Shown here one piece after another: positions 5,290-37,446 of a stretch of DNA of 64,000 nucleotides. This DNA is from Lophium mytilinum (lineage: Eukaryota), in contig MU004181.1 in assembly GCA_010093605.1 (NCBI GenBank), positions 124,001 to 188,000 of the forward strand, given 5' to 3'. The translations under genes and the position numbers were made by a program. The notes under the pieces are model-generated. The model had not been told where the DNA came from, made no database searches, and saw nothing but the letters and a program-made list of their open reading frames with translations. Numbering within the stretch: the first letter of the stretch is position 1; every line of letters starts with the position of its first letter.

Positions 5290-6489
5290 ATGTCCACTTC
5301 TTCCGATGCCTCTACCAATGGCTCTTCCCATGTCCCTATCAATTCCACGACGGCGCCGAGTCCATCACGCCTTGTTGACTTTCTGGCAGAGCCAAACGCC
5401 TACTATCCAATCTTCGATTCTAATACTCGCAATCTAGAAGCGAACGACTTGCTGAAGCTACGCCATGTATCGAAATCCCTCACCACCGTGTACCCAACTG
5501 TGCAAAAGACGCAGTGGAATGTCAATGAGGCGTTGAAGAAGTTCGTGAAGGATCGGAAAGAATTCCGCAATAAACTGGGCCTGGCCTCCTGCGTCATATC
5601 AGGGCAGTTTGCGCTGGACTTCCTCGACAGGAGCGCCGTGGGGGACCGCCTGGACATTTTCGCACACGGAAAGATGGGGGGTCTAGCAAACGCGGAATAC
5701 ATGGCATGGTGGATCGAACACGAAGGCTATGCCGTTGTTCGCTCCTACCCATACGACGATGAACTTATGACCGAAGTCTACGTACGCCCAGGCACAAGCG
5801 ATCCGACTATCTATCTACAAAACACTCGCGATACTCCAATCGTGAGCCTCTTGAGAGTCGGCCCCCAGTACAGTCTTGCCCTCGCCAACATTATGACATC
5901 TACCAAAGTCTACGCACCGTTTGCGAGAGACACTTTCAGAGAGCATCGGTCCTATCTCAACAAGCTCCTCGACGACTACTGCGCCGACTTGCTTACCGCT
6001 GTAGCGCAAACCGGACGTCGCATGCTCGACATACGCCACATAGCAACCCGGCAGGGGAGCGTCATTCGTCAATTTACCGACGGCAGCACCTGGACCATGG
6101 AATTGAATAATGCTGGTATTGACAGTCCCACAACTCCGGACTACGTTGTAGATTTCACCACGTTTGCAATCAGTGTCACACGAAAACATCCGCAGTACTA
6201 TTATTGGATTGACATACTCCAAATATCACATCCTGCGCTTGCTTATACCTGGGCGCACTTATGTAGCCCCAAAGGACGCTTAGATGCAGCTATGGCGATG
6301 GAACTCTCAATGACCCCGAGGGATAATTGGCCTGGATCCGGCAATAGATCATTCGACGACATTCTGCTCAACGGAGATCACCTCAAACCCGACTTGCTGG
6401 CGCTTTCAAGGTACTATGATGACATGCTAACTGAGTGGCTTGAGGAGGAGCTACTCGAAAGGGACGATGTGGGGTACAGTGGATGGTGA
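5290..6489 (+). CDS. Family A paralogue (399 aa)
   Basis: Intact ORF with family motifs QWNVN, ISGQFALDFLDR..GDRLDIF, LANIMTSTKVYAPFARDTF, DG.TW.M, TPDYVVD, YYDDM..W. Confidence 0.85.
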   Translation: MSTSSDASTNGSSHVPINSTTAPSPSRLVDFLAEPNAYYPIFDSNTRNLEANDLLKLRHVSKSLTTVYPTVQKTQWNVNEALKKFVKDRKEFRNKLGLASCVISGQFALDFLDRSAVGDRLDIFAHGKMGGLANAEYMAWWIEHEGYAVVRSYPYDDELMTEVYVRPGTSDPTIYLQNTRDTPIVSLLRVGPQYSLALANIMTSTKVYAPFARDTFREHRSYLNKLLDDYCADLLTAVAQTGRRMLDIRHIATRQGSVIRQFTDGSTWTMELNNAGIDSPTTPDYVVDFTTFAISVTRKHPQYYYWIDILQISHPALAYTWAHLCSPKGRLDAAMAMELSMTPRDNWPGSGNRSFDDILLNGDHLKPDLLALSRYYDDMLTEWLEEELLERDDVGYSGW

Positions 6490-7219
6490 TAGTACGGGCA
6501 AGGGGCTTGTAGCGGGCTAAGAAGCTGAAGTTCGGAAGTTTATCAGTTTGGTAGAGGATGTGTGATTCAGTATCTATGATGATGCCATTCAAAACTGACA
6601 GCTGATTCCGGCTCAGCATATGGGCTGCGAATTTTAACTGTGTTATATATTTCTAAGAATTAAGCAGCAAAAGATCGCCGGGCTGAGCTTCTACCAAAGG
6701 CCTCAACAAACAGTTCCATGGCAAGATGGCAAAGCAGGTTTGAAACTAAGCTAGCATTGATGAAAGTACACCATTCTTGATAAGACGTTCCTTAACCACG
6801 GCTTTCCCTTGACTTGAAAATGGTGACTCTTCTGGTACTTACAGAGATCTTCCAGAGTTCTCAAGTTTAGTAGACTACACCTAAACGAGTACATGGAAGT
6901 CCCGGTGAAGCGTTGTTCTCACGTGAACAGACGTAAATGGCACGTTCAGGTGGGCAGCTACAGGTTTAAGGCATATCTTGCTTCCTACCCTGATTCACCA
7001 TTCTCACGCGTACTACTGACAGGCTCTGTGCCCACTCAAAGACCCCCCTCGCCCATCACCTAACGTCAACTTGAAGCTCTACAGTAGCCAACCAACACCC
7101 ACGGCCCAACACGTCTCAACCACCCCACCTCCAGAGCCTCTGCGGAGCCATACCCGAGCGTGAACTCAACCTATACCCCAACCCGCAACCCAAGCACAAC
7201 GTCCGCCATTGTGAACACC

Positions 7220-8434
7220 ATGGACCCGACTCCGCGCCAAAGCCCTCTAGTAGACTTCCTCACAGATCCTGGCCGCCACGTGCCCATGTTTGACGCTATT
7301 ACGCAGAACTTGGGCCCGGCCGACATCGTCAAACTCGGTCGCGTGTCCAAAGCTCTCGGCAATGTGTACCCCGCCGTCCAAAAGTCTCAGTGGAACATTG
7401 ACGCGTCCTTGAAGAAGTTCTTCAAGGAGCCCAAAGCTTTCCGTAACGCACTGAGCGAGGCCTGGGGAGTGATCTCAGGAATCTTCGCCCTCGACTTCCT
7501 AGATAGGCGAGCGCCAGGAAACCGGCTCGATACTTTCCTGCATCATGAAGTACCGGATGATGACGAGGATAACTTCTCATTTCTTGGTATGGAGAAATAC
7601 CTGAAGGATCAGGGATATACTGAAGACACGCCCCAGCGCATTCTTGGACAGCCAGTTGACATTGACATGAATAACGATTTTGGGTTCAAGATCTACGCCC
7701 TGGAAGGACATGGCGCTAGTGCAAAGCTGTCAGTTTACCTTCACGGCTGTCTTGCGGATCGCGTGTCTGATATCTTGACTAGCTGGACAACTTCCCAAAA
7801 TTCAACAGCTTTGTCTAATATCATCACCGCCACCAAGGCGTACGCGCCGTTCGCGCGGGAAACGTTCAAAGAGTACCGATCGTATTTAACCCAAGAAGCG
7901 AGTCAGTGGACCGTAGGGGGACTCCATGTGGTTGAAACTACTGGAAGGAAGATCCTAGATATCCGGCAGCAGGACAAACTGCTAAAGGACCATGCTCGGA
8001 GTCTCTCGGATGGCATGACGTGGACTTTAGTACTCGACTCTGAGGGGATCCAAGAGCCCTTCGCACCGGAATATATCACCGACGCCACGGTATTCTCACT
8101 CAGTGTCGACAAACGCCATGGTGTCAACTTCTACAACGTCGAAATTGAACCATTTGACCACGCGGTGTTAGAGCATACCTGGTATGTGCCGGAAGCCTAC
8201 CATGCGCCCCTGAGAGAAATACTTGACTCCATCGCGGTCCTCTCGTTCTTCAGAACCCCGAAGGAGAAGTGGGTGACGGAACTATCGGCATATCATACCC
8301 ACCAGGACGTCATCCGGAACCGACCTGATAAGGCTACGAACGCGATTGCTTGGCCACATAAGAAGCCGTACTACGATGACATGATGGTAGAGTGGATCCA
8401 AGAGGTGCAGAAGCAGATCAAGGAGACGAAGTAG
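7220..8434 (+). CDS. Family A paralogue (~404 aa)
   Basis: First ATG at 7220 (the track start is GTG). All family A motifs are present. Confidence 0.85.
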   Translation: MDPTPRQSPLVDFLTDPGRHVPMFDAITQNLGPADIVKLGRVSKALGNVYPAVQKSQWNIDASLKKFFKEPKAFRNALSEAWGVISGIFALDFLDRRAPGNRLDTFLHHEVPDDDEDNFSFLGMEKYLKDQGYTEDTPQRILGQPVDIDMNNDFGFKIYALEGHGASAKLSVYLHGCLADRVSDILTSWTTSQNSTALSNIITATKAYAPFARETFKEYRSYLTQEASQWTVGGLHVVETTGRKILDIRQQDKLLKDHARSLSDGMTWTLVLDSEGIQEPFAPEYITDATVFSLSVDKRHGVNFYNVEIEPFDHAVLEHTWYVPEAYHAPLREILDSIAVLSFFRTPKEKWVTELSAYHTHQDVIRNRPDKATNAIAWPHKKPYYDDMMVEWIQEVQKQIKETK

Positions 8435-8852
8435 TATTAGCGGCGAATGCGGTGCTGATGTGCACACCCTATCAATTCACAGCATTGTGACAGGAGTTTG
8501 GGCTTTCTTTGGTACTGTTTGGGGCGTTCCAATAGGCTCTTAATATTCGGACATGTTGACAAACTTCACACAATGAAAATTGGGCTACCGTTTGACTGGC
8601 CAAAGTCGTGATAGCTGAGGCACTCCTGACAGTGGCGTCGTGCAACTAAGAGTTGTTGCCGGGCAGTGAGATATATGTGTGCGTAAACTTATGACCTTAC
8701 TGTACCATTCTCCCTTAGAGGCTTAGCGTCGTGGGGGCCTTGGCGTGCTCGTCTTGTTCCGCATTCCCAACATCCACTCGCTGTTCGACCTCCACTTCAC
8801 CACACCGCGTCACACCCACAGCGTTCAACTCCAGCAACCGTACTAGAAGAAC

Positions 8853-9995
8853 ATGTCCAATTCTACCAGCATCCCGCCGCGCGCCAGCCCGCTCCTCAAC
8901 TTCTTGACGCAGCCGGGCCGATATGTGCCCTTTTTCAACGCCATCATCGAGCATCTTGGTCCAGCCGACATTATCAAGTTACGTGGTACGTCTCGAGATC
9001 TCGGCAACATGTATTCCACTCTCATAAGCACGAAATGGAACATCAACACCGCCCTATGGAAATTTTTCAAGCACCCGAAAGCCTTCCGCAACAAGCTAGG
9101 AGAGACGTCGGGGGTAATATCGGGACAGTTTGCGCTCGATTTCCTGGACAGAAAGCCGCCCGCGGACCGACTCGATATCTGGGTGCAAGGACATGCGGAG
9201 AGCCGGGAGGAGGAAGACGAAAACACGTCCCAGAAATGCTCCCACACCACTGTAGGTGAATGGATCCAACAGCAAGGCTACGTAGAGGACACGATCCTAC
9301 AGGAGATAAAAAGAGACGCTAAGTGGGGTTACAAGATGTACAGAGGGACTGCAGGGCGCGAAAATTTGACGATCCATCTCCACGGCTGCATGTGGAAGAA
9401 CCCCGTTCCTGACATCCTGGCCGACCGCAGCGTCCCCCAAGGCACACTGGCGCTAGTAAACATCATCACCGCGACGAAAATTTATGCACCATTCGCTCGA
9501 GACACGTTCACCAAAAATCACTCCTACATGCAAAAGGCCATTAGACAAGACCTCAAGGGACCGGTTGGAGAGATGGTCAACGTAGTAGCTCAGTCGCGTC
9601 AGATCCTAGACCCTCCGCCTCAAGCCGAAGACCACATACGGAGTTTCTCCGATGGCAACACCTGGAGGATGATGCTAGACTCCGAGGGCATCGCGCCGCC
9701 AGCCATCCCGGACTTTGTGACTGATGCCACGAGGTTCTCGGTCCGCGTCCAGCCCGAGTGCTATTCCATCAACACCGGTGAGCTCGAAGACCCTGCGCTG
9801 CGCTATGCCTGGGCTATGCCGGTCGATTACTTCCTGATTCTCTCTAAGAAGCTGAAGTTCCGCCGCGAGGTTCAAATGTATGAAACACCGCACGAGCTAG
9901 GATACTATGATGATAGAATGCCGAAGTGGATCAGTGAGACTGATCGGGAAGTTTCTTTGAAGATGCAAAAGGATATAGGCTGGTCTACACTATGA
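8853..9995 (+). CDS. Family A paralogue (380 aa, shortened C-terminal segment)
   Basis: Intact ORF with family motifs. It lacks roughly 35 aa between YETP and YYDD relative to its neighbours. Confidence 0.85.
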   Translation: MSNSTSIPPRASPLLNFLTQPGRYVPFFNAIIEHLGPADIIKLRGTSRDLGNMYSTLISTKWNINTALWKFFKHPKAFRNKLGETSGVISGQFALDFLDRKPPADRLDIWVQGHAESREEEDENTSQKCSHTTVGEWIQQQGYVEDTILQEIKRDAKWGYKMYRGTAGRENLTIHLHGCMWKNPVPDILADRSVPQGTLALVNIITATKIYAPFARDTFTKNHSYMQKAIRQDLKGPVGEMVNVVAQSRQILDPPPQAEDHIRSFSDGNTWRMMLDSEGIAPPAIPDFVTDATRFSVRVQPECYSINTGELEDPALRYAWAMPVDYFLILSKKLKFRREVQMYETPHELGYYDDRMPKWISETDREVSLKMQKDIGWSTL

Positions 9996-10049
9996 CGAAG
10001 CGTAGTACACCGAGACTGTAGTTAGAAATGATATTATATGTCTCTGAAA

Positions 10050-10760
10050 ACCCTGACTGACGTTCATGGCGTTTGTTTTGCTGATATTGGGAAATTTACT
10101 GGAACATAGATACCATAAGCAGATCGTTTTGGGCTTTATTTCTGAGCCTTTGTATTTGTTACTGTTCGGCTTCGTCTTGCTCACTTCACACCGTTGTAAG
10201 AAGTAGCCAAGTTGGCTGGGAGGTGTTGAGATAAACAGTACTCTGATTCGCACTATCTGCAGATTGATATCGCGCCTAGATGCATCTAGAAATATCTTAC
10301 AAGTCTGGGTATCCGAAATGATCCTGTTCGGCTTCAATTTTGCTTGCTTCATACCACTGGAAGGAGTAGCCCAGCTAGTCCTGAACTAATGAGTTAAACA
10401 GCACTCTGATTTGTCCTGTCTGGAATCTAAAATCGTACCTAGATAATTGCAGTACTGTTCCATAAGTCTGGGCACACGAATTTATATCTATTTGTCTCGA
10501 ATTTTGCTCCCTTAACGCCACTGTCAGGGGTAGCCTGGATGGTCGGTAGCTAGCTAGTCCAAACGCAGTCTAATATACACTTTCTGGAACCTGACATCAA
10601 GCTTAGATGCCTGCAGTACTAATCCACAAGACTGAAAACACCTATTTGAATCTATTCGCCTGGATTTTGCAACGTCAATACTACTGTCAGGGGTAGTCTA
10701 GCGAGTCAGTAAATAGCCGGTCAGAATAGAGTGCAGATTGTACTGTTTAAGACTAAACAT
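10050..10760. repeat. Degenerate tandem repeat, ~164-bp unit, ~4 copies
   Basis: The core (a/g/c)(c/t)(c/a)..CTGTCAGGGGTAG-like motif recurs at ~10190, 10353, 10517 and 10681, with aligned flanks (CTAGAT..CAGTACT..AAG.CTG; CT.TT.G.CT..A.TTTGC). Boundaries are approximate. Confidence 0.7.
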
Positions 10761-10959
10761 CGGCTTTGGATCCTTGAAACTTCGTGGGGGACTCAAGACC
10801 TATCACGTGATACCGTTATTCGCGCCAAGCCTTGTGTTCACGCGTGAGCGCGTCGTAGGTAACGTTACACGAAGTTCAAATCAAACATCCACCATAATTA
10901 CAACTTGCCATCGCCTCGATACCGCTATACTCTTCGCACTTCCACACAGCTTCAGCACC

Positions 10960-12357
10960 ATGGCTAGCTCACCAGCCGCTACGGACATGCTTCTCCACGA
11001 GATAGCTGCTCCTAGCACCAATCCAGCCACCATTTCGGACAACGCGAAGGCGCCGACTGAGACCCCCGCAGATAGTCCATCTTGTCAAGCTGTAGCGACG
11101 TTCGACACTGCCAAGAAGCCATCGAAAGGACGCCTTATCGATCTCCTCGATCCCGATAGATACATTCCTATGCTCGACAAGATCACCGAATACCTCGACC
11201 CGGCAGACTTAGTGAATCTGCGCCGCGTGTCTCGAAAGCTGGGCGAAGTGTACACGAAAGTGCAGCAAACGCAATGGAATATCAATACAGCTTTGAAGAA
11301 GTTCGTCAGGGATCCTGTAGAGTTCCGAAACAAGCTGGGAGAGGTATCTGGTATCATATCGGGTATGTTCGCGCTGGATTTTCTGGATCGACGTGCAACT
11401 GGTGATCGACTGGACATTTTCGTCCGCGATGTCAATCAAGAGGTCGTCGTCGATTGGTTTCTTCACAACGAGGACTATGTGTACGCAGACACTCTGGATA
11501 AGGACGGTGTTTGGCAGGACTATCACGCAAGTTCCTTTGTGGAGGAAAGACGTCCAGAATGGGAGAATCGGGATGGGATTCGCGAGGAATACATTCTTTT
11601 CCGCTTGACTCGTCTTGAGGCTACAAAACTCAGGGTGTACGTCCATGCCTCGCTCGATATACCACGTTCCTGCTTTCTTGCAACCAACGGCACCCAACAC
11701 TCTCTCGCCCTTGCAAACTTCATCACGGCGACGAAGGTGTATTCCCCCTTTGCGCGGGGCACATTCCTCGAATATCGCTCCTACACGCACGGTGTTGTAG
11801 GTGAAGATGCCGCATATGCCTTGAATGCCGTTGCATCGACTGGTAGAAAGACAGTTGGCATCCGCCTACAGGACTCGAGGATGAAAACGACCCTTCGCAA
11901 GTTCGCCGACGGCGAAACGTGGAGCATGATCCTCGACTCAACCGGCGTCCGAGCGCCAGAAACCCCTGACTACGTTGTCGACGCTACTGCCTTCCTGGTT
12001 GGTGCAAGTCATATGCTTATGTGGTTCTATGAAACAACCACGACCGAGATCTGTCACGTGGGTACTAATTACGTATGGCTGTATCCGTATCCAGATCAGA
12101 TCGTCCCCCATCTGGACACAGCGGTTGCATTGGAACTCTATAAAACCCCGAGGGAGAGTTTCGCGCATTGGGTGGATATACGCCCTACTCTTGCTCAGCT
12201 TGTCGAGCAGAGACATCATCGTAACCATCATTCTTTCCCGCATAAGACGTTTTATGATGATATGATGCCGCAATGGATCAAAGAGATAGAAGACGACATG
12301 GCGGCAGAAGAGAATGGGAGTCAAGATTACCCGAGGAAGCGCCCGAGGCTTCATTGA
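10960..12357 (+). CDS. Family A paralogue (~465 aa) with C-terminal NLS-like PRKRPR
   Basis: Likely ATG 10960 (MASSPAA). All family motifs are present; the protein ends YPRKRPRLH. Confidence 0.85.
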   Translation: MASSPAATDMLLHEIAAPSTNPATISDNAKAPTETPADSPSCQAVATFDTAKKPSKGRLIDLLDPDRYIPMLDKITEYLDPADLVNLRRVSRKLGEVYTKVQQTQWNINTALKKFVRDPVEFRNKLGEVSGIISGMFALDFLDRRATGDRLDIFVRDVNQEVVVDWFLHNEDYVYADTLDKDGVWQDYHASSFVEERRPEWENRDGIREEYILFRLTRLEATKLRVYVHASLDIPRSCFLATNGTQHSLALANFITATKVYSPFARGTFLEYRSYTHGVVGEDAAYALNAVASTGRKTVGIRLQDSRMKTTLRKFADGETWSMILDSTGVRAPETPDYVVDATAFLVGASHMLMWFYETTTTEICHVGTNYVWLYPYPDQIVPHLDTAVALELYKTPRESFAHWVDIRPTLAQLVEQRHHRNHHSFPHKTFYDDMMPQWIKEIEDDMAAEENGSQDYPRKRPRLH

Positions 12358-13453
12358 AAGCCAAACTTCTAGGACCGTGATTACCTCGTGTTTATGTTGA
12401 GCAAAGGTGGACAGAGCATCCGAGGGTTACGATTGTTGGCATGTCGGGCCTCTCATCTGATCATGGCGAGCTATCGACGGTGTTCTTAGAATTAGTGTTT
12501 GGGCTATCTGACGGTGCAGACATTGGGGTGGGACAACGTTGGATGTGCAGCCATCAGCTCATCACTATACGATCACTCTATGAACAATCAGATCACTATT
12601 CAAACATCTGGAAAAGTCAACTTTGTTTTCATACGAAAGAGTAAGGTTGAGAACCCTGTCATCTTCTCATGTGATATCATGAGATTCTTCTGCAATTCTA
12701 TCAATAACTCAGCTTCATCTCTCTCCCAGCTGGATCGCTTTAAAAAGTGTGCATCTCACAGATAATGGGCCCGAACGTCGCAAGGAGAGCTTTCGATTTG
12801 GTTACCATTGCATCTCATAGTGGCTTGTGTTTTACAAAAACGATTGCTTCCAGCTAGGGCTTGCTCTAAGCTTGTACCAAGATCGCAGATATAAATAGAA
12901 GCCCGTTATCTTGATCACTAACCTGTTCTTTCCCTGAGTTGAGGTTCTTGCTTCTACTCCAGGCGTGCCCATTCATGCGCGGTTCATACCCTCCCTAGGC
13001 TCGAGCAATTATAGATTGGGCAGTATGTAGTTCTGCCTTTAGTTGTTTGAACCGTGCTCTAACAATTCTCTTAGCGATACTATGTATATACAGGGCCCTG
13101 AAATGCTCCAGCTCTCTTACTGCTAGAGGTCTTCGTAGACGGCACGTGCCCGAGTACCACATGACTTTCACCGAGTCCGTCACGTCAGGTCGCCCATGCC
13201 TGAGGCACATTCACCATCCATCGCGAGCAGCATCAACTTTGGCACATGAGCTCTATTTATTCCTTCGGGATTTTCGTGTAGGGATGCAAGCTCTATCTCA
13301 CACCCACCGCACACCCACACCACACTTTGTCCACGTCCGAACAACCGGCATGAGCAACAGTTTCGTACTTATCCACTGCTACCTCATTCCAACACCAGCC
13401 CCAGTTTCTCAACCTCTCCTTTTCCTAACGTGCGGCTAGCTACTTCCAATACA

Positions 13454-14751
13454 ATGGCTACCTCTATCTTGGAGATGATTGCGTCCCTACGCAGTCTTGC
13501 TATCTTTGGCAACAATGTTGATGCACTTCAGGTCCCGGACACCGACGCTCCAGGTCAGCCCACCGTCGACAGCGATCGGCAAGAGATGCCAAAGGGGCGC
13601 TTAATCGACTTCCTCGAGCAACCACACCGCTTTGTGCCCGGTTTCGATACTATCACAGGCTACCTAGAGCCAGCAGATATAGTCAACCTGCGACGTGTTT
13701 CACACAAGCTAGGAGAAGTCTACACGAAGGTCAGAAGACGCAATGGAATATAAACTCATCATTGAGAAAATTCTTCCAAAATCCCGTCAACTTCCGCAAC
13801 AAGCTGGGCGAAGCTGCAGCTATCATATCTGGCAATTTTGTCCTGGACTTCCTAGATCGACGTGCAACGGGTGATCGAATGGACATATTCTTCCATTCCT
13901 ACGATTGGGAGCCCCTAAATGAGTGCTTGGTACAGGAGGGCTATGTGGACACGGATGTACCTTGGAGCAACGATCCCAGAAGCCAATTCGTCGATCCAAA
14001 CGAGGACGAGTTTGGTGACCTCTACTGGCACAAGCTGTTCACGCGCTCTCGGCCTAACGCAGAGCCACTTCAAGTCCACCTCCACGGCGCCAACGGAACG
14101 CCCCTCGCTTGCCTTCTCAGCGCGACAGGCAATCAGCATTCTACGGCTTTTTCAAATTTCATTACGGCGACCACTGTCTACTCCCCCTTCGCCCGCGAAA
14201 CCTTCCTGGACTACCGATCTTATCAACATGGTAAGACACGCCGTGAACAGTGCGGCCACACCCTCAATGCGATCGCTTCCACCGGGCGAAAGACTCTTCA
14301 GCACCGGCTGACAGCTGACAAAAACCGTGTCAAGCACCGAAAGTTCACGGATGGTGAAACCTGGCGCATGGTGCTCCAGAATGAAGGGATCAAAACTCCT
14401 ACTACACCTGACTACGTCATGGATGCCACCACGTTCAAGATAGAAGCGTCGTGGAATTGCGGCTTTTCCACCGTCACTCAGGATGCCGGTCATCCGGTAC
14501 TCGAGCACGCTTGGGTATCGTCGCATTGGGATCATCTTAAACCAATTCTTCAGGGATTACTGGAGATCGAGTTTTACAAGACGCCGCGGAAGAAGTGGGG
14601 TTCGACCTTGGACGCGACACTTACTCGAGATGAAATCTTGGCTACGATCGATCGTGATGATGTGGATGCACTGCCATTTCACGTCAGCACTTTCTATGAT
14701 GATATGATGCTGGAGTGGATTCGGCATGTAGAAGAAGAGGGGCACTTCTAA
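13454..14751 (+). pseudogene. Family A paralogue with a single 1-nt deletion near 13731 (pseudogene or sequence error)
   Basis: aag gt- cag aag acg caa tgg versus aaa gtg cag caa acg caa tgg in the upstream paralogue. Restoring one base joins ORFs 13430..13753 and 13762..14751 into a full-length member. Confidence 0.8.
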
Positions 14752-17700: not shown

Positions 17701-19157
17701 ACCGATGTTAACCTTAGACCTCATGTGGCACTAGAAACGTCAGCCGATATAACGTAAACATCCCCAAGAACTTGCACAGGATCGATTCAGATATGGTGAA
17801 GGTACTTGCAGGTAGTTGTGTTGATAGGCAGGTCAAGTATTAATTGGTTGATGGGTCAGTGGGGAAGCTAGCTACACAGAAAGGACAGATACACGGTATT
17901 GCGCTAAGTAAAACCAGTAGCCAGGAGCTGATCCTTCTTGCACTTCTCTTCACTCCCTTCAATGAGTTCGCTCTTCTAGTCGGGTCCTCTCTCTAAGCTG
18001 GTTAGTGTCTACGTTAAAAGAGTGATGGATATACGTACGCTTCGAACCTATTTCCATTGTATTTGGTTTTTAGGACAGCGCAGCGGCTGGTCATACGAAC
18101 TTCGATACGATTTGCTGGTGTTGACTGGCGGGTAGCACCGGCGGCGGGCGGGTCTCCGGCTCGATAAGCTGATGATTGGAAGGTCGAAGATGCGAAAGGG
18201 TTCCCCTTGGAACATGTCGTCAGATTCTGAATCGTTATCCTTGTGATGCGTCTGAGTGGGCCCCTGCCGGAAGATAAGACGGCGGCATGGTGGGAGAGGG
18301 GCACGTTCTGCAGGGCCCATAGAAGAACGCCCTTGATGAACGCGTCGACGGCGGACTTCATGACCGGGCGGAGGGTGAGCTGAAGCGCCACGGGCATGTT
18401 TCCACTAGGATTCTGTCCACGAAGACATCCACGGATTCCACGTCTTGGGCTACGAGGTCCACGGACATCGTCTGTGGTGGTCAACGACGCGACGACGAAC
18501 CTAAGAACCTTCCCGGGACCGACAGAATACAAGGAACGAACACCGAATCGGCCTTTTATCCATTTCCGGTCTTCGAGGTGCTCTCGCTTAGTCCAGGTCT
18601 TTGGAAACACCGGCTGATATCCTACACGGTTGTCAGTATCGATGTATGCTCATGGAGCCAGGAAGTTGCGTACACTAGGTAGGCGATCAGAAGGCCTGTG
18701 AGAACAAGGCACATGCAAGTCCAGATGACCAAACACATCTGCGGATGGTTGACGCAGATGCGGCCGGGTCTAGTGGCTCTCAGGGAGGCTCTCGCGACCA
18801 ACAGGGCTTGACGCTGGCTCTCCAGCATCTTGGCTGTCGCGACGTTGAAGAAGGCGGGTGCCAGGGTGGGCGATGCGTTGAAGACAGCACACCGTGTCGT
18901 GCGCTGGGAGCCTCGTCAACAGACGCATCCTTGTTGTGCTGGTCGTATCTGAGCGAAGTTAGCAACAGATATCGACAAGGCTCACACAGGGAGTGCGGGT
19001 GCCCTCGCAAGAGGGTGCCTTGCTTCGATGTCGGCGAGCAGTGGAGGAGCTTTCGCGACTTACGGGAGATGACTTGCTCTCGAGAAACAGAATACAGATA
19101 ACTGACCGCAATAGAGGAGGCAACCAGGCACGCTCCCCCCATGATGGGTCTGAGTGG

Positions 19158-19307
19158 GCCGGACATCGAGGCGACGTAGACGAAGGAGCCTCCGTTCTTG
19201 TTGTCGATCATAGCACGGGCAACCTCACGGCTGATCTTGAAGGCACCGTTGAGGTTGATGTCGATCGTCTTCTCCCACATATCGTCTTCGTAGGTCTCGG
19301 CGGGGAC
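19158..19307 (-). pseudogene. Isolated internal fragment of a short-chain dehydrogenase/reductase
   Basis: PAETYEDDMWEKTIDINLNGAFKISREVARAMIDNKNGGSFVYVASMSG is a typical SDR central segment. No TGxxxGxG or YxxxK motif was found nearby. Confidence 0.75.
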
Positions 19308-22300
19308 GAGGCGCACCTCGCCCCGAAAAGTAGAACAAAGATAACACACTTCTTTAGAGGAGTTGACCGGCTTTGATGTTTTCGTGTCGGGGGTGATGCG
19401 GAAGAAAAGCAGGGCGGGCCGCAGGCGAATTTGTGGGCGGTGGGTCTTGGCAGTCCCGTGACCGATCCTCGCTGTGCTTGTTGGGGCTAGGATCACCTGC
19501 ACATTCAACAATCAACACCCATCACCCCGCCTCTTACGAGCGACTGGGAATGGTTTCGAGATTCGGGGAACAATCTGGGATTTTAACAGTCATGTCAAGC
19601 ACACAGAACTAAAGTGCGGATCACTTGTATACCAAAGCTAAAAATGCGATTCAGTCTCCATGTGCTACCTATATCCAAAGCCCAGGAGGCACCGAAAGAT
19701 TTCCTATAGATACCAAGCGCAAAAGTTTGTGTAGAGAGATGCCAGAACACGTACCGTCCAAATCAATCCGCTGACTAGTGTCACAGCCTAGCGACCGAAA
19801 CGCCAAATGCTGGTACGGTACCCGCAGGAATCCAGCGAGGAGACATGACAGTACACACTGGTATATTATGTCTAGTCCCGCTCTCCCACTTTACTCTCGC
19901 CCGGCCATCAAACATCACGATTACCATACTGCTGGCGAATTGAAACGGCCCCCAATGCTTTAACGACCGAGCGTAGATTGAGAGAACATCTAGCTTCTCG
20001 AGAGCAATGCAGAATGTTGGAGTAGGTTGAGACTGTGTTTCGCAGCTTGCTGGCTTTGTGGAATGAATTGCAGATTATCAGGATGGAGCGTGTAATTAGA
20101 CCTACCCACTCCTCTTCTCGAGCGCACCTGGTTCACGGCGAAAGGGACATGCTAGTTTCGCCCGAGTAGATTTCAAACACTCCTATGCCCAAGCGAATCT
20201 ACTTGGAAGCGACCCCAAAGGTTCTCGAGTGCGCGCACATGCCGTGCTAGAGGGGTCGCGCTGGGAACAGATCCGTAGCCTTCAACGAGGACTTATAGAC
20301 TTGGCGGACGGGCATGTGCAGGTAACTTCAAACGATACCTTTAGGTCGCGGCGTGCCTCGCTTTTTGGCTGCATCGTAATACGACCCTTGCGGCGTTCGG
20401 GTTCTGCTGGTGGCGGCATGCCGTTACCGGAGCTTTCGAATGCTAGCATTGACATCGGAGCAATTCACAAAGAATGCATGGCGGCAATGAGAGTAGATGG
20501 CGATAACATAGCACACGTGCTCAACTGCTAGTGCTCCGTGTGCTTGCGTGCATTGCCAGTAAAGCGCTGGGATGCTGAGATAAGTTTGATTCCCGCACTA
20601 AAGATGGCAAGCGACGTCCGGTAGATCGCTATCTCCCTCTCGTGAAACTAGATGACTATCGAAGGGGCAGATCTGGCGAAGGCGTGGGCAGTTTGTACGG
20701 CTAGGAAGCATCCACTGTGAGGTCCGTAACTAGATATTAGTGTCCTAGTCGCTCGCAGAACACAATCCTTACATCCGCTTTTGAACGTGAGACTGCAAAT
20801 CTTTGACCCTTTTCGATCTGAATGAGTCCGCTCGAGAGACCGCTCTAATGCATATTTCATATCTCGGTGTCGACCCTTTCATGTGAACGGCACCGCCAGC
20901 TAGCTCATTTGGAAAGCGCTCCGCGCGCTAGGGACTGTCGAATGGAGTTGGGGTAAACTTGCCTTCTTCTTGAACAGCCTGAGAGTGGTTTGCCCCCGGC
21001 GATACCCCCAACCCTAAGTGGTGGAATAGAAATACCAGTAACAGTAGTACATCATCTTCAGGGCGACTCGTGTTAGTCGTCCTCGTAATCAATCGAGTCT
21101 GATGCGTTGGTAGCGCCCAAATGTCCGTCATCCCGGTAGCCAGCACGTGACGGTAGCAAAGTCTAGCCATCGAATTTTCAGGCTGCTTCCAACAATCTTG
21201 TAGACGGCCACTTCACTAAGGTAGACGGCAGCTCTTCCCTACCTACTTTATGCAAGCCTTCACCTTGAAATCTTGTGCGACTCAGCACTATCGTGATCTC
21301 AAGGCGGCGTTGCGATAGCGCTACTCTGGCAGGGAAGGGCAAAGCGGTAGCTGGATAGGAGTGCCGGAGTTTGGGGTGAAACCGGCTTTTCAGGTAATCT
21401 TCACCCAGATGTTGACGTGTACGGGAAACTAGAAGTGAAGCAGACAGCGAAAAAGTGACAGATGGAGATGACCTGCTCTATGGAGATCCTTGGATTCAAA
21501 TCTGTTCAAGAATCGTTAGCTTTATTATGAATTGGCGCAGGTCACCACAGATTGAGCACAAGGGCTGAGAGGCGCCATCAACATGCGACGAAACGCATAC
21601 CTGAGATCTTCAACTGGGCTCAGACTCTGATAACTACATTGTGGCGTCCCAACCCTGGACTACAGCCGGGACATCTATAAGACTCCAGGAATAGAATAAA
21701 AGTCTGCAAGTGACTGATAGAGGTGCTTTCTACGTGCAAATTTGGGCCGTCGCTTAGCCAATGGAAGTGGCCAAGGCAACTGCATGCACAGTCGACGATA
21801 TCACCTCAACGTGCCCAATGTATTATCTGCTCGTTTTATCCCAGTCCCGGGAGGCGAAAAGGCTTCATGGTGGCTCTTTGCAAAGGCTTCGGGGATAATT
21901 TAGCGCTTTCCACTCATAAGTAAAGAAGTTCTGGGGCAAAGTAGTTGCTTAGCCGAAGACGCTCCACAATAGTCTAAGAGTCCAGTAATCTGCTGTCTAG
22001 TTACCTCAGGCAGTCTTGCTTGCCGAAATATTGTTGTTCTGTAAGATTCGAGGTTGTGACTTTGCTAAGGCTGGGAAGCGCCGACATATATGGAGTAGTT
22101 TGAGGGCGTCCTAATAAAGGTGAGGCTGACATATTCTTTGACGAGAGGCCAATTGCGAGAGTAGGCAATGGTACAGCACTAAATGTAGCATCTCGGCGAG
22201 TCAAGCCGTTAGGACGCTTCCAAAGTATCATATTTCCCGTCTGAACTTTCCACCAGTCTCACCCTCAGTCCCGCCTTTCAAAATTAAGATTGTGATATCG

Positions 22301-24889
22301 GGAGAGCGCTGTTCTTTGCTTGCCAACGTGTTCTTTGTATAACACCCAGCGCGCTTTAATATGTGGGGCCTGCTGTTCAGCGATGGCTTAAGGGAAAAAG
22401 TCTTGAAAATCAGAGACTTGCTCTTGCGTGGGTGCCGAATAGGACTTTAACGGATGAGTGCAGGGCCGGGGAGAGCTATGCGAACAAATCCGTGGCACAT
22501 ATAGAGCTGGGAGGTCTGCTATGGTATTGTACTGTAGCTGTTTGCCCGACGGCAATTGCTGAGCGAATGGTGGTCACGAAGATGCTTGGCATTAGCGAAT
22601 TGAGCGACCAGGAACGTGAAGCCATGTCCGGGGCTCAGAAACGCCAGGACGATAGATGACCTTTCTCTTCCGTGCACGCAACGCTTTGGTCGTCGTAAGA
22701 GAATGTGCCTGAGTCAAAAATCCAGGTATGATGCTAGACCTGGCTTCCACAACCAAAGCTCATCAGGTCGCAAACTTTATACTAAGCCGAAGATGAATGA
22801 GAGGCGCCGCTGAAGAGGCTTAGCCGATGCAAAGGAATCCAGTTTTCAAGGCTTTACGGCGTTGCTTGTAGGTGTTTCTTGTTGTGAGATAGTAGGCGTG
22901 TTGTAGGTCAGGCCAGGCCCAAGGCATCCGTGTGTCCGAACTAGGCAATGGGATGCTGCAATACGGCTACGTAATGATGAACATCCGATGAGTAGGGAGG
23001 ATGAGTATCCAGGAATTAAGGCTGAAGAGGGTCTAGTAAGTAGGGCCGACAAGTTTCCAGACACTGAGGAGGAGAAAAGACCGACAACAGGGCTACCTAG
23101 GGACGGGGAAGAGGGGATTGCAGTGTTGGCAAGAGGTGTTGTGTAGGGATTCGACATGGAGGAGGGCTCGAGGGAATGACGTTTACGAAATCCGACCAGG
23201 TTCATAATATCAAGCCTATGCCTCTCTGCGCTAAGTCGAAGGACGATCCTGAAAACCCAGTAACACACGACAGCCTCCTGCATAGGCGCCAGCGTGATCT
23301 TCCTCTTTAACACCTTGGCCACCGCGAGCGGGAGTATGTTGATGTCGACAATCGTGCGTAAGGATGGAAAGGCTGAGCGATGAGCACATGGTAAAGGTTG
23401 GCTTCGAGGAGGAACGCTCTCCCAGGTGATGCCGATGCTGCATTCCAGGGGGCAACGAGCTATATAAGGAACAGACTGATGGGGACGCTAGCAAAGTCTT
23501 CTTGTAGGATGCAAGGGAGCTGGAGTCGCATCTTTGGAGCTTTCCCGTGAGTACTGTGCTCGCGGCCTGGCGGCTGGTGTTGTGGGCGTGACAGCTGCAC
23601 AGTCCATTGACGGCAGTCAAGCCGGCAAGTAGTAGATTCGAGATGAACTACACATCGGCGGAAGTAGAAGATGAGTAGAAACCAGCATCTCTGTGGTATC
23701 ATTGGAAGGCTTTGGACGGCTGCGAGCTGGTCGGCCAGTGCTGGAGGCCCGGCGCCCAGTCTACTGCCACCCTGCCAACCCCAGCGACGCCATCGTCAAA
23801 ACAAGCCACGCAATTTGGGCGAGGACAGCGGCGCGCACCGTCCACGCTCGCACTAATCAAGAGGGGGCCGCGTGGCAATTGGGGAAGGCAAACGCAGGAT
23901 GTATCCAGAAGCAGCTGGCGTGAACGCTTCAGACAGCAGCGCACCCACGATGGGTGGGCCTAACGGCGCTCTCCCGAGCAGGAACTTGCCATCCTTGCGA
24001 AAAGTTGCCGGCCAGTTCCTCACGAGCTCGTGGACTGTGATGTCGCCGGTGACGAGCAAGGCTAGCAGCTTGTCTATGTGCCAATCGCCGAGTTGTACCC
24101 GCCGAGGGGGTAGATGCGTTCGGTCAATCGGGCAGTAGAACAGGTACAAGGCGAGATCGTATTCCGCCGGGGGAATGGGTTTGGCGGGATGGGCCCGACG
24201 CCGTTCTTCAATTTAGGGCGGGATAACGCGGTCAGGTGGAGGGCCAATTTACCAGTGACCTGCTCAACTCGAAGAAGATTGAGGAGCTCGCCGCCAAAGA
24301 TGAGGCTGCCGAGAGCTCGGCGATGTGGTCAAGTCTGGGTGGTGGAGAAAGCAATAGGTTTGAAGTCGAAAGCTTCACGGAGACCGCGGGAGCTGTAGAC
24401 AGGGCGTCGATGCGGCGGCTTGTGGTGCTGCGGTGTGAGCAGAGGTAGGCAAAGATGCTGTTCGAGGTACTGCTGTCGAACGATGAGCTGCTGGAAATAC
24501 TAACCTATTTCTTCATGCGCTTCATAAGATTTACAGACAAAATGTTGATGAGTGATCTTGCTCCTAGGACACGTAACAAGCGAGCACCAATTAGAGCCTG
24601 CTAGGTAGGCTTTAGGGGGCTCGAGGGGTGCTGCAAGCAGTTACTAGAACGTCGGGCTAGTGGAGCAACTGAGGCTGACGATCAAGCCGGCGTGCCCGGG
24701 AAGTGCACTGCTACCCGAGACATTCGGGCCGGTAGGACGGGAGCTGCAGACGAGGCGGTGGACTCGAATCCCGCCTAGCTGTGAGTGCCCTTCGGCATGA
24801 CTACACGGGAAGGTGTGCGCATCAGGTACCCCAGACCCGGACGGCCCTATTCTCTAACTATATATTTGCTATAAGTTAGAATGTTTCTC

Positions 24890-25027
24890 GCCCTCACCTG
24901 TTCACGGTGAGGGTGGTTGTGAACATCGCTAATATCTATCATAGCATATAACAACGGAACCCGGGTTCGACCCCCGTGGAAGGCGTGATTACCTCCTTTG
25001 AGTCCTTAGGAGGAAAACATCTTTTTT
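24890..25027 (+). ncRNA. Putative Pol III small RNA, unrecognised family, copy 1
   Basis: TATATAT at 24859 (-31). Hairpin GCCCTCACC-TGTTCAC-GGTGAGGGT, then TGGTTGTGAAC, then GCTAAT..TAG (ends 24944). B box GGTTCGACCCC at 24964, GAGTCCTTAGGAGG, T6 at 25022-25027. Confidence 0.7.
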
Positions 25028-26929
25028 GCATTTTGGAGTCTTCTGGGCTGGCTTGTTTTTCGCAAAGGGCCGCGTGCTGGGGTATGGCAAAGTGAGGGTT
25101 ATGAAAACGTTTTCGGAGAGGGTCATGGGTGCGTATTGCTCTTTTTATTAAGTTAATGAAGGGTTTACCCGTTGCGGCCAATCTTTTGAAGAAGTATTTA
25201 TAGTAAACATGGTCATCAGTAATAGCATAAGATGAAGCACCTCCCACAGCATGCCAGGAATCCGTTATCTACAACTATCTTTTCGCGAACGATATAGCCC
25301 CAACCAAGCTTACACCGGAACATGCTTCCTGTACCTCCAAAGCCTCTGAGCTAGCTATATATATGAGCCAGAAACTGACTCCGGCCCCGATACCAGATTG
25401 GAAACAGCAAAGAGAATGGAGACTGACATCGCTGCAGACGCCAATAACACATAGCGAATCGGTGTTGCTCTGTTCGGAGTACGAGACGACGTCTGCCGTG
25501 TGGGTTGCAGCGGAGACTTTGCTGAGCGGGACGTTGTCGTCTAGAATAGCAACTGTGATGTTGTAATCCTCCCAGATGACGGCGACTTTGATAGTCTTTC
25601 CAGCCACGGGAAGGAAGTAGCTGGAGTCGTCTCACTCTAGACTGCCCTGACGATGTGGTTTCGATGGCAGACGGTCATCGAGGAAGGCGGTCGTACTGGG
25701 GTAATCTCCGTAGGGGCTCGAAATAGAAACTATCCGCAGAGGACGTGTCTTTGACCGGCCGCCGCGTGAAGGCATTTAGCCCGCCGCGTAAAGGCATTTA
25801 GCCCTCGTTGCCCGTGGTATCGATCCTTTCCTGCAAACTAGGTCTCTCCTTTTTCTCTCTATGGATGGGTGTTGCCACGTGCTAGCATATAGTTACGAGC
25901 GAGAAGAGAACACAATCTTCTTGACTGACTCCTCCGGCGAACGTCTTCGATGGGCGCTTCACGAATATAGACCCAGGGATCGATCCAGCAGGAGCAATTG
26001 TCATGGCACCGAAGGAAAAAGGAGACGGTGGTCCACCACTATGTATGCGGTTTGGGCACCAAGAACTCATGCGGCTTCCCTTTCTCCTTCGGATCCAAAG
26101 TTCATGGTCAACAGAAGTGAGAGCTCTTTCGTCTTGACCGGCTTAGTGACGTACGAGTTGAACCCAGCCAGCACAAAGCAATTGCCTCTATGCCTCACGT
26201 TCAGATATGACACGTTTGGTATTCTGAACACAGAGCTGGCGGTCTTGGACCAAGGTCCTCGGAGTTTCGAAAAGGACTTGGGCGGCACGGAGGACGGCAT
26301 TGAGTGTCCTCGAAAGCAGGAGGAAGAAGGCGACAATGACCACATAACGTAGTCCTCATGGCTTAGTCGATGAAAGAAGTCGGTTATGCCCTTTTGTCCT
26401 TCGCTGGTATGGCACGTTTCGGATCGATCTAGTGGACCAGTCAGCATGATTTATAAGAACCTAGACAGTTTGGGCTCTCACAATCTTGCCGTCAAGACAG
26501 TGCGCCGTCACTATTAGGGCGTTGACACACTCAGTACACCGAGAACCATTTCTCTCCAAAGTTTTATGGCCAGGCCGAAAAATGTGCTGAACGCGAGCGA
26601 TCATACGAACTTGACTTCGGAAATGCAGACAGTGACCTGCGTCTGGCCAAGGAAGGCAGATTCTGACCAGCGAAGCAGAAGGGCTGCACGGTATGCTGCC
26701 TACTCGAGAAAATCAGGGCTCCGGCGCCGGAGAAAGGGAAGGTTCTGTAGCTCGCGACGGACGACGCAGGTGATTCGAGGACGACCTATGGCAGGTCCGT
26801 TGTCGGATGCGTGGCCGGCGAAAATCTTCGAAGCGTACTCTGACATTGCATTATCTAGCCGGGACTCGCTAGATCCACTTGCCAGTGGGCACTTAACGCC
26901 CAAAGGCGCTTCTTTCGTCCCGGTGTGTG

Positions 26930-28860: not shown

Positions 28861-29898
28861 TGGAAGCAAGCAGGTAGGGCGTTTAGTGTGGGTTGAGAAG
28901 GACGCAAGTGACGCTGAGCGCGCAAGCGTTGCGCATCGGCCGTGAGCCTGTTCGATATATAATCCATGGCCGGGAGGGGATATAGACCGTAATGGGAGAC
29001 ATCTAATCCAGTGCTGTTCTAGGGGCGACTTGATAGCTAGGTATGTTGACCATCGTGGGAGCTTCGAAGCTGCGCCGATTCGCAATAACTATCGTAGCAG
29101 GAAGCTGTTGGCGGGAGTTCTTCATGCGGCGGCCATGATGCTTCGACGAGTATGCGCTCTGGGTCCGTCGACGGCGAGGGGCGAGGCTGGCATGGGGAGC
29201 CAGGGCTTCAGGCTGCTCCAGAGTCGACTGTTCCTTACAGGGCGGAGGAGGAGGATTCTGCTTCGGCCGGTTTACGACCACTCGTGGGGCAGGCGAGCTA
29301 CTCTGGAGACATTCGCGCGGCTGTCAATAGAGGACGCTCGCGCGGCGGTTAGGGTGTCGATGGCGTGGTTCTACGAGAGAGATCGAAGACGAGGGTATCG
29401 CAGCTGGTGATGGAGGTACGGCGAATAGTGAAGGTGTTGTTTCGAGTGGGGTGTAAAGTTTGCGGAGGAGCAGGTCAAAGCAAAATGTGTGACGTAGCTT
29501 GTAGGAGACCCTCGCCAGAGCCGAGAAGTGCGTCTGCAAAGTGTAGCTAAGAGCATAGTGGGGGGTCATTGCTAGAACTGTCAGGCTTGAGGTCGGAGAC
29601 ATAGACGGGCAACTGCTAGGTATGGTGAAGGTGTACCGCAAGAAATAAATGCGTTGAGGGCTTTAATGGTGGAGAGCGGCCACAGGGTCCATCTCGGAGA
29701 CGTTTCCTGAACCTCATCGTCGGCAGTGCAGCCGCAGGGTCTCAAAAGAGCCACAAATATCTACAAGACAGTAGGAGTAGCCTTGCGAGACACTCTCAAA
29801 TCCCCTAGGTGACCGTAGGCAAAAATGAAAGCCCACTGCCGCCAACAGAGCGAACACAAGTACATATAAATAGACCCCCAAAGCAAAAGAAGAAGTCT

Positions 29899-29971
29899 TA
29901 GCGCAAGAAGGACTCGAACCCCCATCTTCCTCTGCCAGCAGAGGATATGTTTCCATTCACACCATTGCGCC
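29899..29971 (-). tRNA. tRNA-like gene (73 nt) with non-canonical 8-nt anticodon loop; no amino-acid assignment
   Basis: GGCGCAA TG GTGT-GAATGGAA-ACAT A TCCTC-TGCTGGCA-GAGGA AGAT GGGGG-TTCGAGT-CCTTC TTGCGCT A, with a T-run downstream at 29885-29888. Confidence 0.7.
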
Positions 29972-30240
29972 TTGTGATTGATTTTGAGATTTGCTCAAAA
30001 TAAAAACATTACCTACCCTAGCAGATCGAGACCCAGATAGGCAGATAGCAAGAATAAGTGGCAGAGCGGGCCCACCCTATCACTCCACGTCACGGCCACT
30101 GCCTCACGCCAGTGGTCGGCTCACGATGTGCATCTTTTTGCATCCTTTTCCGCGTTTTGCAGCTCAACGCCCACACCACGGGGTGTTGCACTTCAAGAAT
30201 TAGCCTGCGGGTATCTCACAGTAGTACTGCAAGCATGAAC

Positions 30241-30303
30241 AAAAAAGATTAGTCGATGTTCTCGACGACTTCTACGTAAATAGAAGTCGTCGAGAATATC
30301 GAC
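30241..30303 (-). ncRNA. 23-bp hairpin in the 3' trailer of the tRNA-like gene, followed by a T6 terminator
   Basis: Arms 30252-30274 and 30281-30303 are 22/23 complementary around a 6-nt loop. The hairpin starts 2 nt after the discriminator. A6 on the + strand at 30241-30246. Confidence 0.7.
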
Positions 30304-30305
30304 GA

Positions 30306-30381
30306 TGGCGAGGCACGGAATCGAGCCATGGGCTCTGATGCTAGAGACTAGATCTGCGTGTTACTACTACACCACATCGCC
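30306..30381 (-). tRNA. tRNA-like gene (76 nt) with aberrant 12-nt anticodon loop
   Basis: GGCGATG TG GTGT-AGTAGTA-ACAC G CAGAT-CTAGTCTCTAGC-ATCAG AGCC CATGG-CTCGATT-CCGTG CCTCGCC A. One acceptor-stem mismatch; T54 is replaced by C. Confidence 0.65.
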
Positions 30382-31214
30382 TTTTGATTTGACTCTCAGC
30401 CAAATAAGACTGAACATATACCTTGATGAATGAAAGGATACATTAGCGACTGCAAGTGAAAGTAGTGGGATGAGATGGCCCAGAGCCTGGGAGGGCTGGC
30501 AGGGGTGAGACGCAGGGCCACTTTCACTTCGGTGAAACGGGCTTAGTGCGTGATCGTGGCCATCACGTCTCCGACTGCATTCACGTCACCGACTGCATCT
30601 ATTGCTACGTGTATGTAAGGCTGTAGAGGTGTCGACATGCTACGGCTTCTCGTCTCATTTCACAGTCAGGCCGCTAGAGGAGACGCACGTCGAACAAAGC
30701 GCGTATCTTAGTGCTCCGGCATAGCATTCATGCATGAAGACCTAGAGGGTCGTACCTATGGACACGTGGGGAAGCGTCTCTACTTGGGGCCATAGAAAAT
30801 ATATCAACAACAACTAGCAACCGTCATTGCTTCATTATGGAATGAAGACGGTCACGACAAGTCCCATGTGTAGGAGATTTTGCATTTACTAGTAACGGGT
30901 TTAGTGTCTATGGAGAAAAGAGCTTCATGCTTCCACGCCGGTAGTTTCAAGAAAAGCACTATAAAAACAACACCCACAGCTGAACCGATATAGAACTCAT
31001 GCTTCACTTCGGAAGAAGCCAGGCCAGCAATACTAGGTTCTTTGCAGTAATGATCCTTCGCATGAAGCCCATGCGACATCGCCTACCTTAATAATCAAAT
31101 AACCAGAGCAGTGCTTCTTCTGCAATCTCTAGACACTGTCCCGATCGTTTCACAAACCCGGTCTTCCCATTTGTTACCTTGACCGTAAAATCTACATGGG
31201 GCTTCCCCTTTTTT

Positions 31215-36264: not shown

Positions 36265-37110
36265 CATTTGCATTTGGGTCACAATGTGAGCTTGCAGTGA
36301 CGACGTGTATGTCTATGCGCACCTTTTGCCGCTGCTAGGGGTGCCCCCATAGCTTTTCCATAATAAAGAAGCCACGTCTTGTTCCATATCGTGAAACTTG
36401 AACTGCCTTTTGACTAGCTAGCTCTCTAGTTTCTAGGGCACTCCTGACGGTGGTATCTAGCTTCCGAAAGGGATGCGAAAGGAATTGGGCTTCAAGGCTA
36501 GAAAAATGTTTGTCCGAAAGCATTTGCATATGGGTCACAATGGGAGCTTCTAGCGATATTCCATCGGTTTCTGCACACCTTTTACTCCTGCTAGAAGTGT
36601 CCCTTTAGCTTTTTAATAATCTAGAAACCATGTTCTGTTCTACACAGTAGACTCTAGGCTGCCTTTTGACAGGCTAGCTTTCTAGTCGCTAGGTACTCCT
36701 GACGGTGGTGTTTAGCATCTAAAGGTGATGCTAAAGGGATGGGACTTGGGCGCTTAGATCCACGGCGTTGAATTTGCTGCTGATAGAAGTACTACTATAG
36801 CTTTTCCAAAATCTGGAAGCTATGTCCTGTTTCATACAGTGGAATTTGGACTGCCTTTTGACTGGGTAGCTTTCAGGTCGCCAGGGTACTGCTGACAGTG
36901 GCGTCTAGCTTCCAAAGTGGATACGCAAGGAGTGTGACTGGGATGCATAGATCTACGGCCTTGAATTAGCTGCTGCCAGAAGTGCCCCCATAGCTTTTCC
37001 AAAATCTACACACCATGTCATGTTCTATACCGTGGAATCTGCACAGCCTCTTGCCTAGCTAGCTTTCTATCCACCAGGGTGCTCCTGACAGTGGTATTTG
37101 GCTTCCAAAC
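36265..37110. repeat. Degenerate tandem repeat, 4 copies (spacings ~255, 193, 192 bp)
   Basis: TAGCTTTT..AA, CTGCCTTTTGAC..GCTAGCT and AGGG(C/T)ACTCCTGAC(G/A)GTGG-like motifs recur at ~36440, 36695, 36890 and 37082. Confidence 0.85.
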
Positions 37111-37446
37111 GTGATGCTCAAGAAGTCATATTCGTGTGCGTGGAGTGTAAAGTCACGCATTCAAGGGGGCATCGCTGCCTGCATGTTGGAGGTGTGGGCA
37201 TATGGTGCCCTCAAGCGCCTTTTTTGATGAAGAAGGAGATATACAGAAGAACGCCACTCTCACTGACATACCCACATCTTTCCGATACTACTAGTGATCT
37301 CACAATCCTTCCTTACGGCACAAACAGCCCGCAGAACCGCTTCCATCCCCACATCCTACAGGCTACTCCAACTTCCCCTAGTCAGACCGACATAACTTCC
37401 AGTAGTACGGGAACGATGGAGGGGAACAAGCGGCTCGTTGTTGCGC

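Follow-up and report, generated by a model that had tools for sequence, protein, structure and literature searches.

A tRNA-like sequence that cannot decode, followed within two nucleotides by a near-perfect hairpin and then by a run of six T's, raises the question of whether it is a working Pol III gene for a hairpin RNA or the remains of a tRNA gene with a palindrome at its 3′ end. We examined one such locus in a 64,000-nucleotide stretch of Lophium mytilinum DNA, which we refer to as the window. The original prediction had described the locus as a tRNA-driven hairpin cassette. The coordinates and letters it gave were correct, and every part is on the minus strand, as follows.

30402..30420, minus strand: TATA-like A/T-rich elements TATATG (−39 to −34) and TTATTT (−26 to −21), counted from the first base of the 76-mer, from the sequence
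30381..30306, minus strand: tRNA-like 76-mer with acceptor, D, and T arms, from Rfam RF00005 and our own tRNA model
30305-30304, minus strand: 2-nt spacer UC after the discriminator A, from the sequence
30303-30252, minus strand: whole hairpin with 23-bp arms, from the sequence, folding, and a window-wide hairpin scan
30303..30281, minus strand: 5′ arm of the hairpin, 23 nt, from the sequence and folding
30280..30275, minus strand: loop of the hairpin, UUUACG, 6 nt, from the sequence
30274..30252, minus strand: 3′ arm of the hairpin, 23 nt, from the sequence and folding
30251..30247, minus strand: 5-nt spacer UAAUC between hairpin and terminator, from the sequence
30246..30241, minus strand: T6 run, presumed Pol III terminator, the first run of at least four T's after the 76-mer (offset +60)

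We confirmed that the feature is real, with a non-random anatomy, and that it is single copy at a likeness of 80% or more. The anatomy claimed for it was exact: a tRNA-like module and a 22/23-bp hairpin lie in one presumptive Pol III unit that closes with T6. The stem has 22 Watson-Crick pairs out of 23, the sole mismatch on the minus strand being A30297·C30258. The hairpin begins 2 nt past the discriminator and stops 5 nt short of T6, so that the 59-nt trailer of the 76-mer is nearly all one hairpin. No run of four or more T's intervenes there or elsewhere between 30381 and 30247, T6 being the first, and UAUUU is all the T-rich content of the hairpin loop. In human assays, an isolated T3 is described as nearly inactive as a terminator (PMC3141230). 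Folding of a 147-nt stretch, consisting of the precursor and 6 nt past T6, gave −59.4 kcal/mol (z = −5.9), with none of 200 shuffles as stable, and produced an acceptor-closed tRNA-like domain and a separate hairpin. In a scan of the window with loops of 3 to 30 and at most one mismatch, this hairpin was the only one to reach 14 matched pairs or more, and the longest hairpins in ten first-order Markov random sequences had at most 14 pairs. By a rough estimate, chance would place a lone hairpin within ~10 nt of either of the two tRNA-like 3′ ends in the window in ~3 cases in 10,000. The A/T-rich elements ahead of the 76-mer may serve as a Pol III upstream element.

This architecture fits a Pol III cassette made of a tRNA leader and a short hairpin RNA (shRNA), and we tentatively favor reading the locus as a non-decoding, tRNA-derived gene that is transcribed through the hairpin to T6. 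If so, TFIIIC would bind the internal A- and B-box regions of the 76-mer, and Pol III would start a few bases upstream of 30381 and read about 140 nt, up to T6. RNase P and RNase Z would cut at the two ends of the tRNA-like fold. The start of the 2-nt spacer is the expected RNase Z site, and since this cut would fall after discriminator A30306, the released trailer would begin with U; at about 60 nt, it would hold the 23-bp stem, the 6-nt loop, and a short U-ended tail. Dicer could then turn this shRNA-sized RNA into one duplex of ~22 nt for Argonaute. We infer every biochemical step here, and any regulatory use of the cassette, by analogy with the tRNA-led units of Neurospora crassa and gammaherpesvirus 68 discussed below, where this architecture has been shown to work. 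Nearly as likely is a plainer history, in which a tRNA gene decayed and its 3′ flank recently gained a palindrome, for example by template switching while a Pol III gene is replicated, leaving a locus that is silent or weakly expressed and has no selected role.

The tRNA-like fold of the 76-mer is significant in two independent models. Against Rfam RF00005 it scores 34.4 bits, with a gathering score of 29 and all 71 model positions matched. This match was seen only in a 901-base search with lax filters; whole-window Rfam searches (64 kb) and default ARAGORN missed the 76-mer. Our own tRNA model (R1), built from 50 tRNAs of metagenome loci and run on all 64 kb with the filters off, gave 33.9 bits and an E value of ~3.5e-8 at 30381..30305. 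That search produced two full-length matches in 64 kb, at 39.0 and 33.9 bits, and the next best, at 13.7 bits, was a partial T-arm match.

In the cloverleaf, the acceptor stem has six of seven pairs, with one U·C mismatch. The D stem is GUGU/ACAC around the D loop AGUAGUA, and the T stem, CAUGG/CCGUG, has five pairs and carries the T loop CUCGAUU, which has C at position 54 where the model consensus reads UUCGAUU. The anticodon stem, CAGAU/AUCAG, contains one A·A mismatch and surrounds a 12-nt loop, CUAGUCUCUAGC, whose insert can pair with itself (CUAG UCU CUAG) and so close the anticodon arm. The stems hold two non-standard pairs, flagged alike in the Rfam alignment and in that of our own model. 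The 12-nt loop means that decoding capacity has been lost: the 76-mer has neither the usual loop of 7 nt with U33 nor an anticodon that could be read, and the conserved GG of the D loop and UUC of the T loop are missing as well. Judged by its architecture, the locus as a whole would belong to the tRNA(-like)/pre-miRNA Pol III cassettes and not to the canonical tRNA genes, whose tests it failed on the loop, on the D-loop GG, and on score. A relaxed ARAGORN run called the 76-mer a tRNA-Pyl(cta), a call that needs shifted arms and irregular D and anticodon arms and that we rejected; the low-threshold calls of the same run at 6427, 29164, 48359, and 50352 look like noise.

Two of the departures fall within the presumed internal promoter. 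In the A-box region, the first G of the D-loop GG is replaced by A, and C54 of the T loop likewise lies inside the promoter region; the B-box region, GGCUCGAUUCC, differs from the model consensus at one position. The A is unusual: when we searched with a D-arm and B-box pattern that permitted A or G at this place and matches at least 118 metagenome loci, the listed matches with the same D arm had A in 0 of 118 cases and G in all. The features by which RNase P and RNase Z recognize a tRNA are largely kept, namely, six of seven acceptor pairs, five pairs in the T stem, and the T-loop region GGCUCGAUUCC.

Defects of this kind, scattered over the anticodon arm, D loop, T loop, and acceptor stem and reaching into the A- and B-box regions, are what a decaying tRNA gene would accumulate, and the overall score agrees. 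When the same Rfam model was run on 20 metagenome loci, it found 36 tRNA matches of 36.6 to 75.7 bits, 34 of them at 46 or more. The 76-mer, at 34.4 bits, and the second tRNA-like gene of the window, at 37.7 bits, are at the bottom of this range, which comes from mostly phage or bacterial tRNAs and not from fungal ones. Against real tRNAs of this mostly phage and bacterial set, the 76-mer scores like a pseudogene, which speaks for a decayed gene. The predicted folding of the 76-mer points the same way. Its cloverleaf has a predicted energy of −16.0 kcal/mol versus −22.9 for the minimum-energy fold, in which a GAGCC/GGCUC hairpin displaces the T arm; such a loss of the T arm, by ~7 kcal/mol, could hinder RNase Z. 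Because genuine tRNAs are often misfolded by energy models, we take this prediction as no more than a caution.

The 76-mer does not point to a particular parent tRNA. The D-arm motif GTGTAGTGGTAACAC together with the B box occurs at 118 or more metagenome loci and in many isotypes. Among the matches listed, ARAGORN called 55 tRNAs with the D-arm motif: 16 Trp, 11 His, 10 Gly, 9 Gln, 4 Glu, 2 Pro, and 1 each of Met, Asp, and Leu. The best global matches of either tRNA-like gene to metagenome tRNAs, again among those listed, were weak. With the motif spread over at least nine isotypes and the best matches this weak, no parent isotype is indicated. Many of the metagenome loci with the D-arm motif sit in dense tRNA clusters that look phage borne.

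The window contains a second tRNA-like gene, on the same strand and 334 nt downstream of the first.

29971..29899 (29898 in our own model), minus strand: second tRNA-like gene, 37.7 bits in Rfam, 39.0 bits in our own model, tRNA-??? (ctgg) in ARAGORN

It forms a good cloverleaf with an 8-nt anticodon loop, UGCUGGCA, which can fold up as a 7-bp stem capped by a CUGG tetraloop, and a T/A-rich element, TTTTATTTT, lies at about −33. No hairpin trails it. Its T4, at 29888..29885, comes only 10 nt past the 3′ end, and therefore a 59-nt hairpin trailer is not the local norm. Canonical tRNAs are absent from the 64-kb window, and two adjoining tRNA-like genes, one of them with an 8-nt loop and no hairpin, fit a local decay of tRNA genes. 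We also tried to align the two genes and their flanks as paralogs; the alignment was out of register and unconvincing.

The A·C mismatch of the stem, which stands on the tRNA strand, also agrees with decay. The hairpin as a whole is harder to accommodate. A 52-nt palindrome would have to slot in precisely, leaving the discriminator on one side and the T6 on the other intact and introducing no T run, and it would have to be the only hairpin of such size in 64 kb. To our knowledge, there is no mechanism that aims palindromes at tRNA 3′ ends, and we counted this against a decayed gene. The two parts also differ in their state of preservation: the arms have one mismatch in 23 pairs, while the 76-mer deviates from a canonical tRNA at six or more points. 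A hairpin this intact beside a far more altered tRNA part is either much younger than its neighbor or held by selection. The claim of a tRNA-driven cassette holds for the anatomy and the single copy and is weakened by the altered A- and B-box regions, the predicted loss of the T arm, and the degenerate neighbor without a hairpin. Those box changes, the predicted misfold, and the neighbor are explained about equally well by plain decay and by a dedicated leader.

Targets of the arms would help a regulatory reading. The original prediction saw no convincing target in the window, and this was borne out: the best 23-mer complements of the two arms have 6 and 7 mismatches, compared with 5 to 9 for 100 shuffled arms. 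With a 16-mer from an arm and up to three mismatches allowed, the window holds two 3-mismatch sites besides the arms themselves. A 23-nt arm pattern with two degenerate positions was matched by no viral contig and by no metagenome contig. Arms that have neither a target in the window nor an exact match in these viral or metagenome contigs add to the case for a decayed gene. By eye, the 3′ arm resembles a conserved block of a four-copy family described below (19/24). The local alignment scores 22, but 52 of 300 shuffles and 38 of 282 random window segments do as well, and since such a score is common among both, we regard this likeness as chance.

A different use of the hairpin is that of a 3′-end element. 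The product would then be the tRNA-like RNA or the whole RNA of ~140 nt, and the hairpin would aid Pol III release or protect the end without being a Dicer substrate. Yeast in vitro experiments described in PMC9278858 lend this some substance: hairpins 0 to 7 nt upstream of the T tract enhanced Pol III release, and the spacer here is 5 nt, within that range, whereas a spacer of 18 nt gave no enhancement. In the same system, as the paper describes it, release is already full at T6, and a hairpin does not enhance it there; the part is normally filled by the tRNA acceptor stem (PMC9278858). A stem of 23 bp is also far more than such a function needs. We consider a pure 3′-end role improbable.

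The hairpin can also be read from the other side, as part of a plus-strand Pol II transcript or as an element acting at the DNA level, with the tRNA-like gene beside it by coincidence. Pairing is in fact complete on the plus strand, where the A·C mismatch becomes G·U and all 23 positions pair. A single transition, however, cannot discriminate between the strands. No open reading frame (ORF) of 70 or more amino acids crosses the hairpin, and the sole plus-strand frame between 29,950 and 30,400 (29988-30203) stops ~50 nt short of it. The plus strand has no Pol III-type signals, and coincidence would leave the exact fit from discriminator to T6 without explanation. Such a reading is very unlikely.

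Mobile elements were a further concern, since 23-bp inverted arms around a 6-bp spacer resemble the paired terminal repeats of a DNA transposon, MITE, or foldback element after an internal deletion, and a tRNA-like sequence might be the head of a SINE. We searched for the locus, taken as 29800-30500 so as to include both tRNA-like genes and the hairpin, in the assembled contigs of two DNA runs (~45 Mb of contigs per run, both made from a single sample, possibly the one that yielded the window). A third run, which may be RNA, shared almost no words with the stretch and gave no contig there, which counts neither for nor against expression. Each of the two DNA runs contained the locus in one contig of 12,463 nt, with no partial or second pieces at a likeness of 80% or more; copies below 80% and matches too short for the aligner are outside the reach of this test. 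With one covering piece per run, a multicopy MITE or SINE is ruled out at that level of likeness. The flanks, ..CCATC and TAATC.., which put TC and TA next to the hairpin, have no direct repeat of 2, 3, or 8 bp as a target-site duplication, and no further copy of an arm was found in the 64-kb window. SINE features were absent as well, the locus being single copy and ending in T6 and not in an A-rich or simple-repeat tail. The multicopy MITE that the original prediction had named as its own counterevidence was thus not what we found, and a transposon remnant or SINE head is largely refuted.

Returning to the Pol III cassette, we compared it with known systems in which a tRNA leads another RNA. 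Fragments of tRNA 3′ trailers have ends set by RNase Z and by Pol III termination; natural ones are short and unstructured. Engineered cassettes that join a tRNA to an shRNA or a guide RNA have the same design as this locus, but they use real tRNAs. Two natural precedents had been cited for the locus, Neurospora crassa milR-4 and the units of gammaherpesvirus 68, and both match what PMC3547838 and PMC3141230 describe.

[quoted passage not shown] The present locus is alike in being a fungal small-RNA precursor, here a candidate one, joined to a tRNA; Pol III transcription is a property of milR-4 and is presumed here. The differences, as far as the source describes milR-4, are that its tRNAs are predicted tRNA-Ala genes and that the milRNA and its star strand flank a second tRNA. 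In the Lophium locus, by contrast, the tRNA part is non-decoding, and both arms lie in one compact hairpin directly behind it.

The gammaherpesvirus 68 units (TMERs) are described as having a tRNA-like internal type-2 promoter, followed by one or more pre-miRNA hairpins and a T-rich terminator, with tRNase Z freeing the hairpin (PMC3141230, PMC3547838). Our locus shares with them, by architecture alone, a tRNA-like module, a hairpin downstream in the same unit, and an end at a T run; its processing is predicted. TMERs, as these papers present them, are viral, clustered, and often carry two hairpins per unit, whereas we have a single cellular locus with one shRNA-like hairpin. A tRNA part dedicated to this use, if real, would be as in the herpesvirus units. 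[quoted passage not shown] Both, as described there, combine a functional tRNA with a known structural RNA, whereas here an anonymous hairpin follows a non-decoding tRNA-like gene.

A re-analysis of fungal milRNA loci states that fewer than half of the reported ones meet basic standards (PMC9757828). The prior for a new candidate should therefore be modest, and we hold ours loosely. Reports of RNAi and of milRNAs exist for the class Dothideomycetes; in our literature search, we found no report of a hairpin small RNA linked to a tRNA in this class. Papers naming Lophium mytilinum, among the matches listed, deal mainly with taxonomy, comparative genomics, and plant-health listings.

A real cassette would add a new cellular example to a class that so far comprises one Neurospora locus and one herpesvirus, the two cases in which the tRNA-leader route to Dicer substrates is proven. 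Were the cassette expressed and processed, this route would also exist as a compact, dedicated fungal gene, and the locus would be a natural model for driving hairpin expression with Pol III in filamentous fungi. Even as nothing more than a relic, it would exemplify how a single palindromic insertion could turn a tRNA gene into a cassette. We also considered a stronger version, in which the tRNA-like gene is non-decoding by dedication and acts solely as the Pol III promoter and the RNase P/Z handle for one shRNA, forming, with its neighbor and the four-copy family described next, a lineage-specific set of Pol III small RNAs. This version is rather unlikely. If true, the gammaherpesvirus tRNA-like/miRNA units would have their first counterpart in a cellular genome.

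Four partial T-arm matches in the filter-free tRNA search drew attention to four related sequences elsewhere in the window.

24856-25031, plus strand: four-copy family, copy 1
41565-41404, minus strand: four-copy family, copy 2
51684-51506, minus strand: four-copy family, copy 3
54156-53979, minus strand: four-copy family, copy 4

Each copy runs from CTATATA through ~25 nt to an 11-bp hairpin, CGCCCUCACC/GGUGAGGGUG, and, after a variable ~25 to 65 nt, to GGGTTCGA(G/C)(Y)CCC. A small UCCUUA(C/G)GAGGA hairpin follows in three of the four copies, and then T5 to T7. The GGGTTCGA..CCC element is a perfect B-box- or T-arm-like sequence. The 11-bp hairpin has conserved G·U pairs, in this orientation only. 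Upstream, conservation breaks off at the TATA; downstream, it is lost gradually over a few tens of bases past the T run. No Rfam family was found for these copies in whole-window searches, or for the copy at 41 kb with lax filters. The four copies form a candidate family of Pol III small-RNA genes, although they may instead represent a shared promoter module used on the opposite strand. We considered a permuted tRNA, since CCUCACC precedes GGUGAGG as it would in a permuted acceptor stem, and rejected it because what would be the D and anticodon arms are not those of a tRNA.

Some other features of the window were observed in passing. Orphan genes abound in the region: of its 43 long ORFs, only the one at 18780-19511, a short-chain dehydrogenase, matches a Pfam family. 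Five tandem paralogous ORFs of 382 to 546 amino acids lie on the plus strand at 5224-14748, have no Pfam family, and share a 168-nt block, at 5498, 7374, 9019, 11258, and 13727. An ORF of 828 amino acids at 59449-61932 has a single match in 5.8 billion proteins, a hypothetical protein of Lophium mytilinum that is 98% identical. Tandem 193-nt repeats (~2.7 to 4 copies, 69 to 75% alike) and four 59-nt blocks spaced 163 to 164 nt apart occupy 36311-37124 and 10174-10722, and a 78-nt stretch of one of these arrays is 71% complementary to the other.
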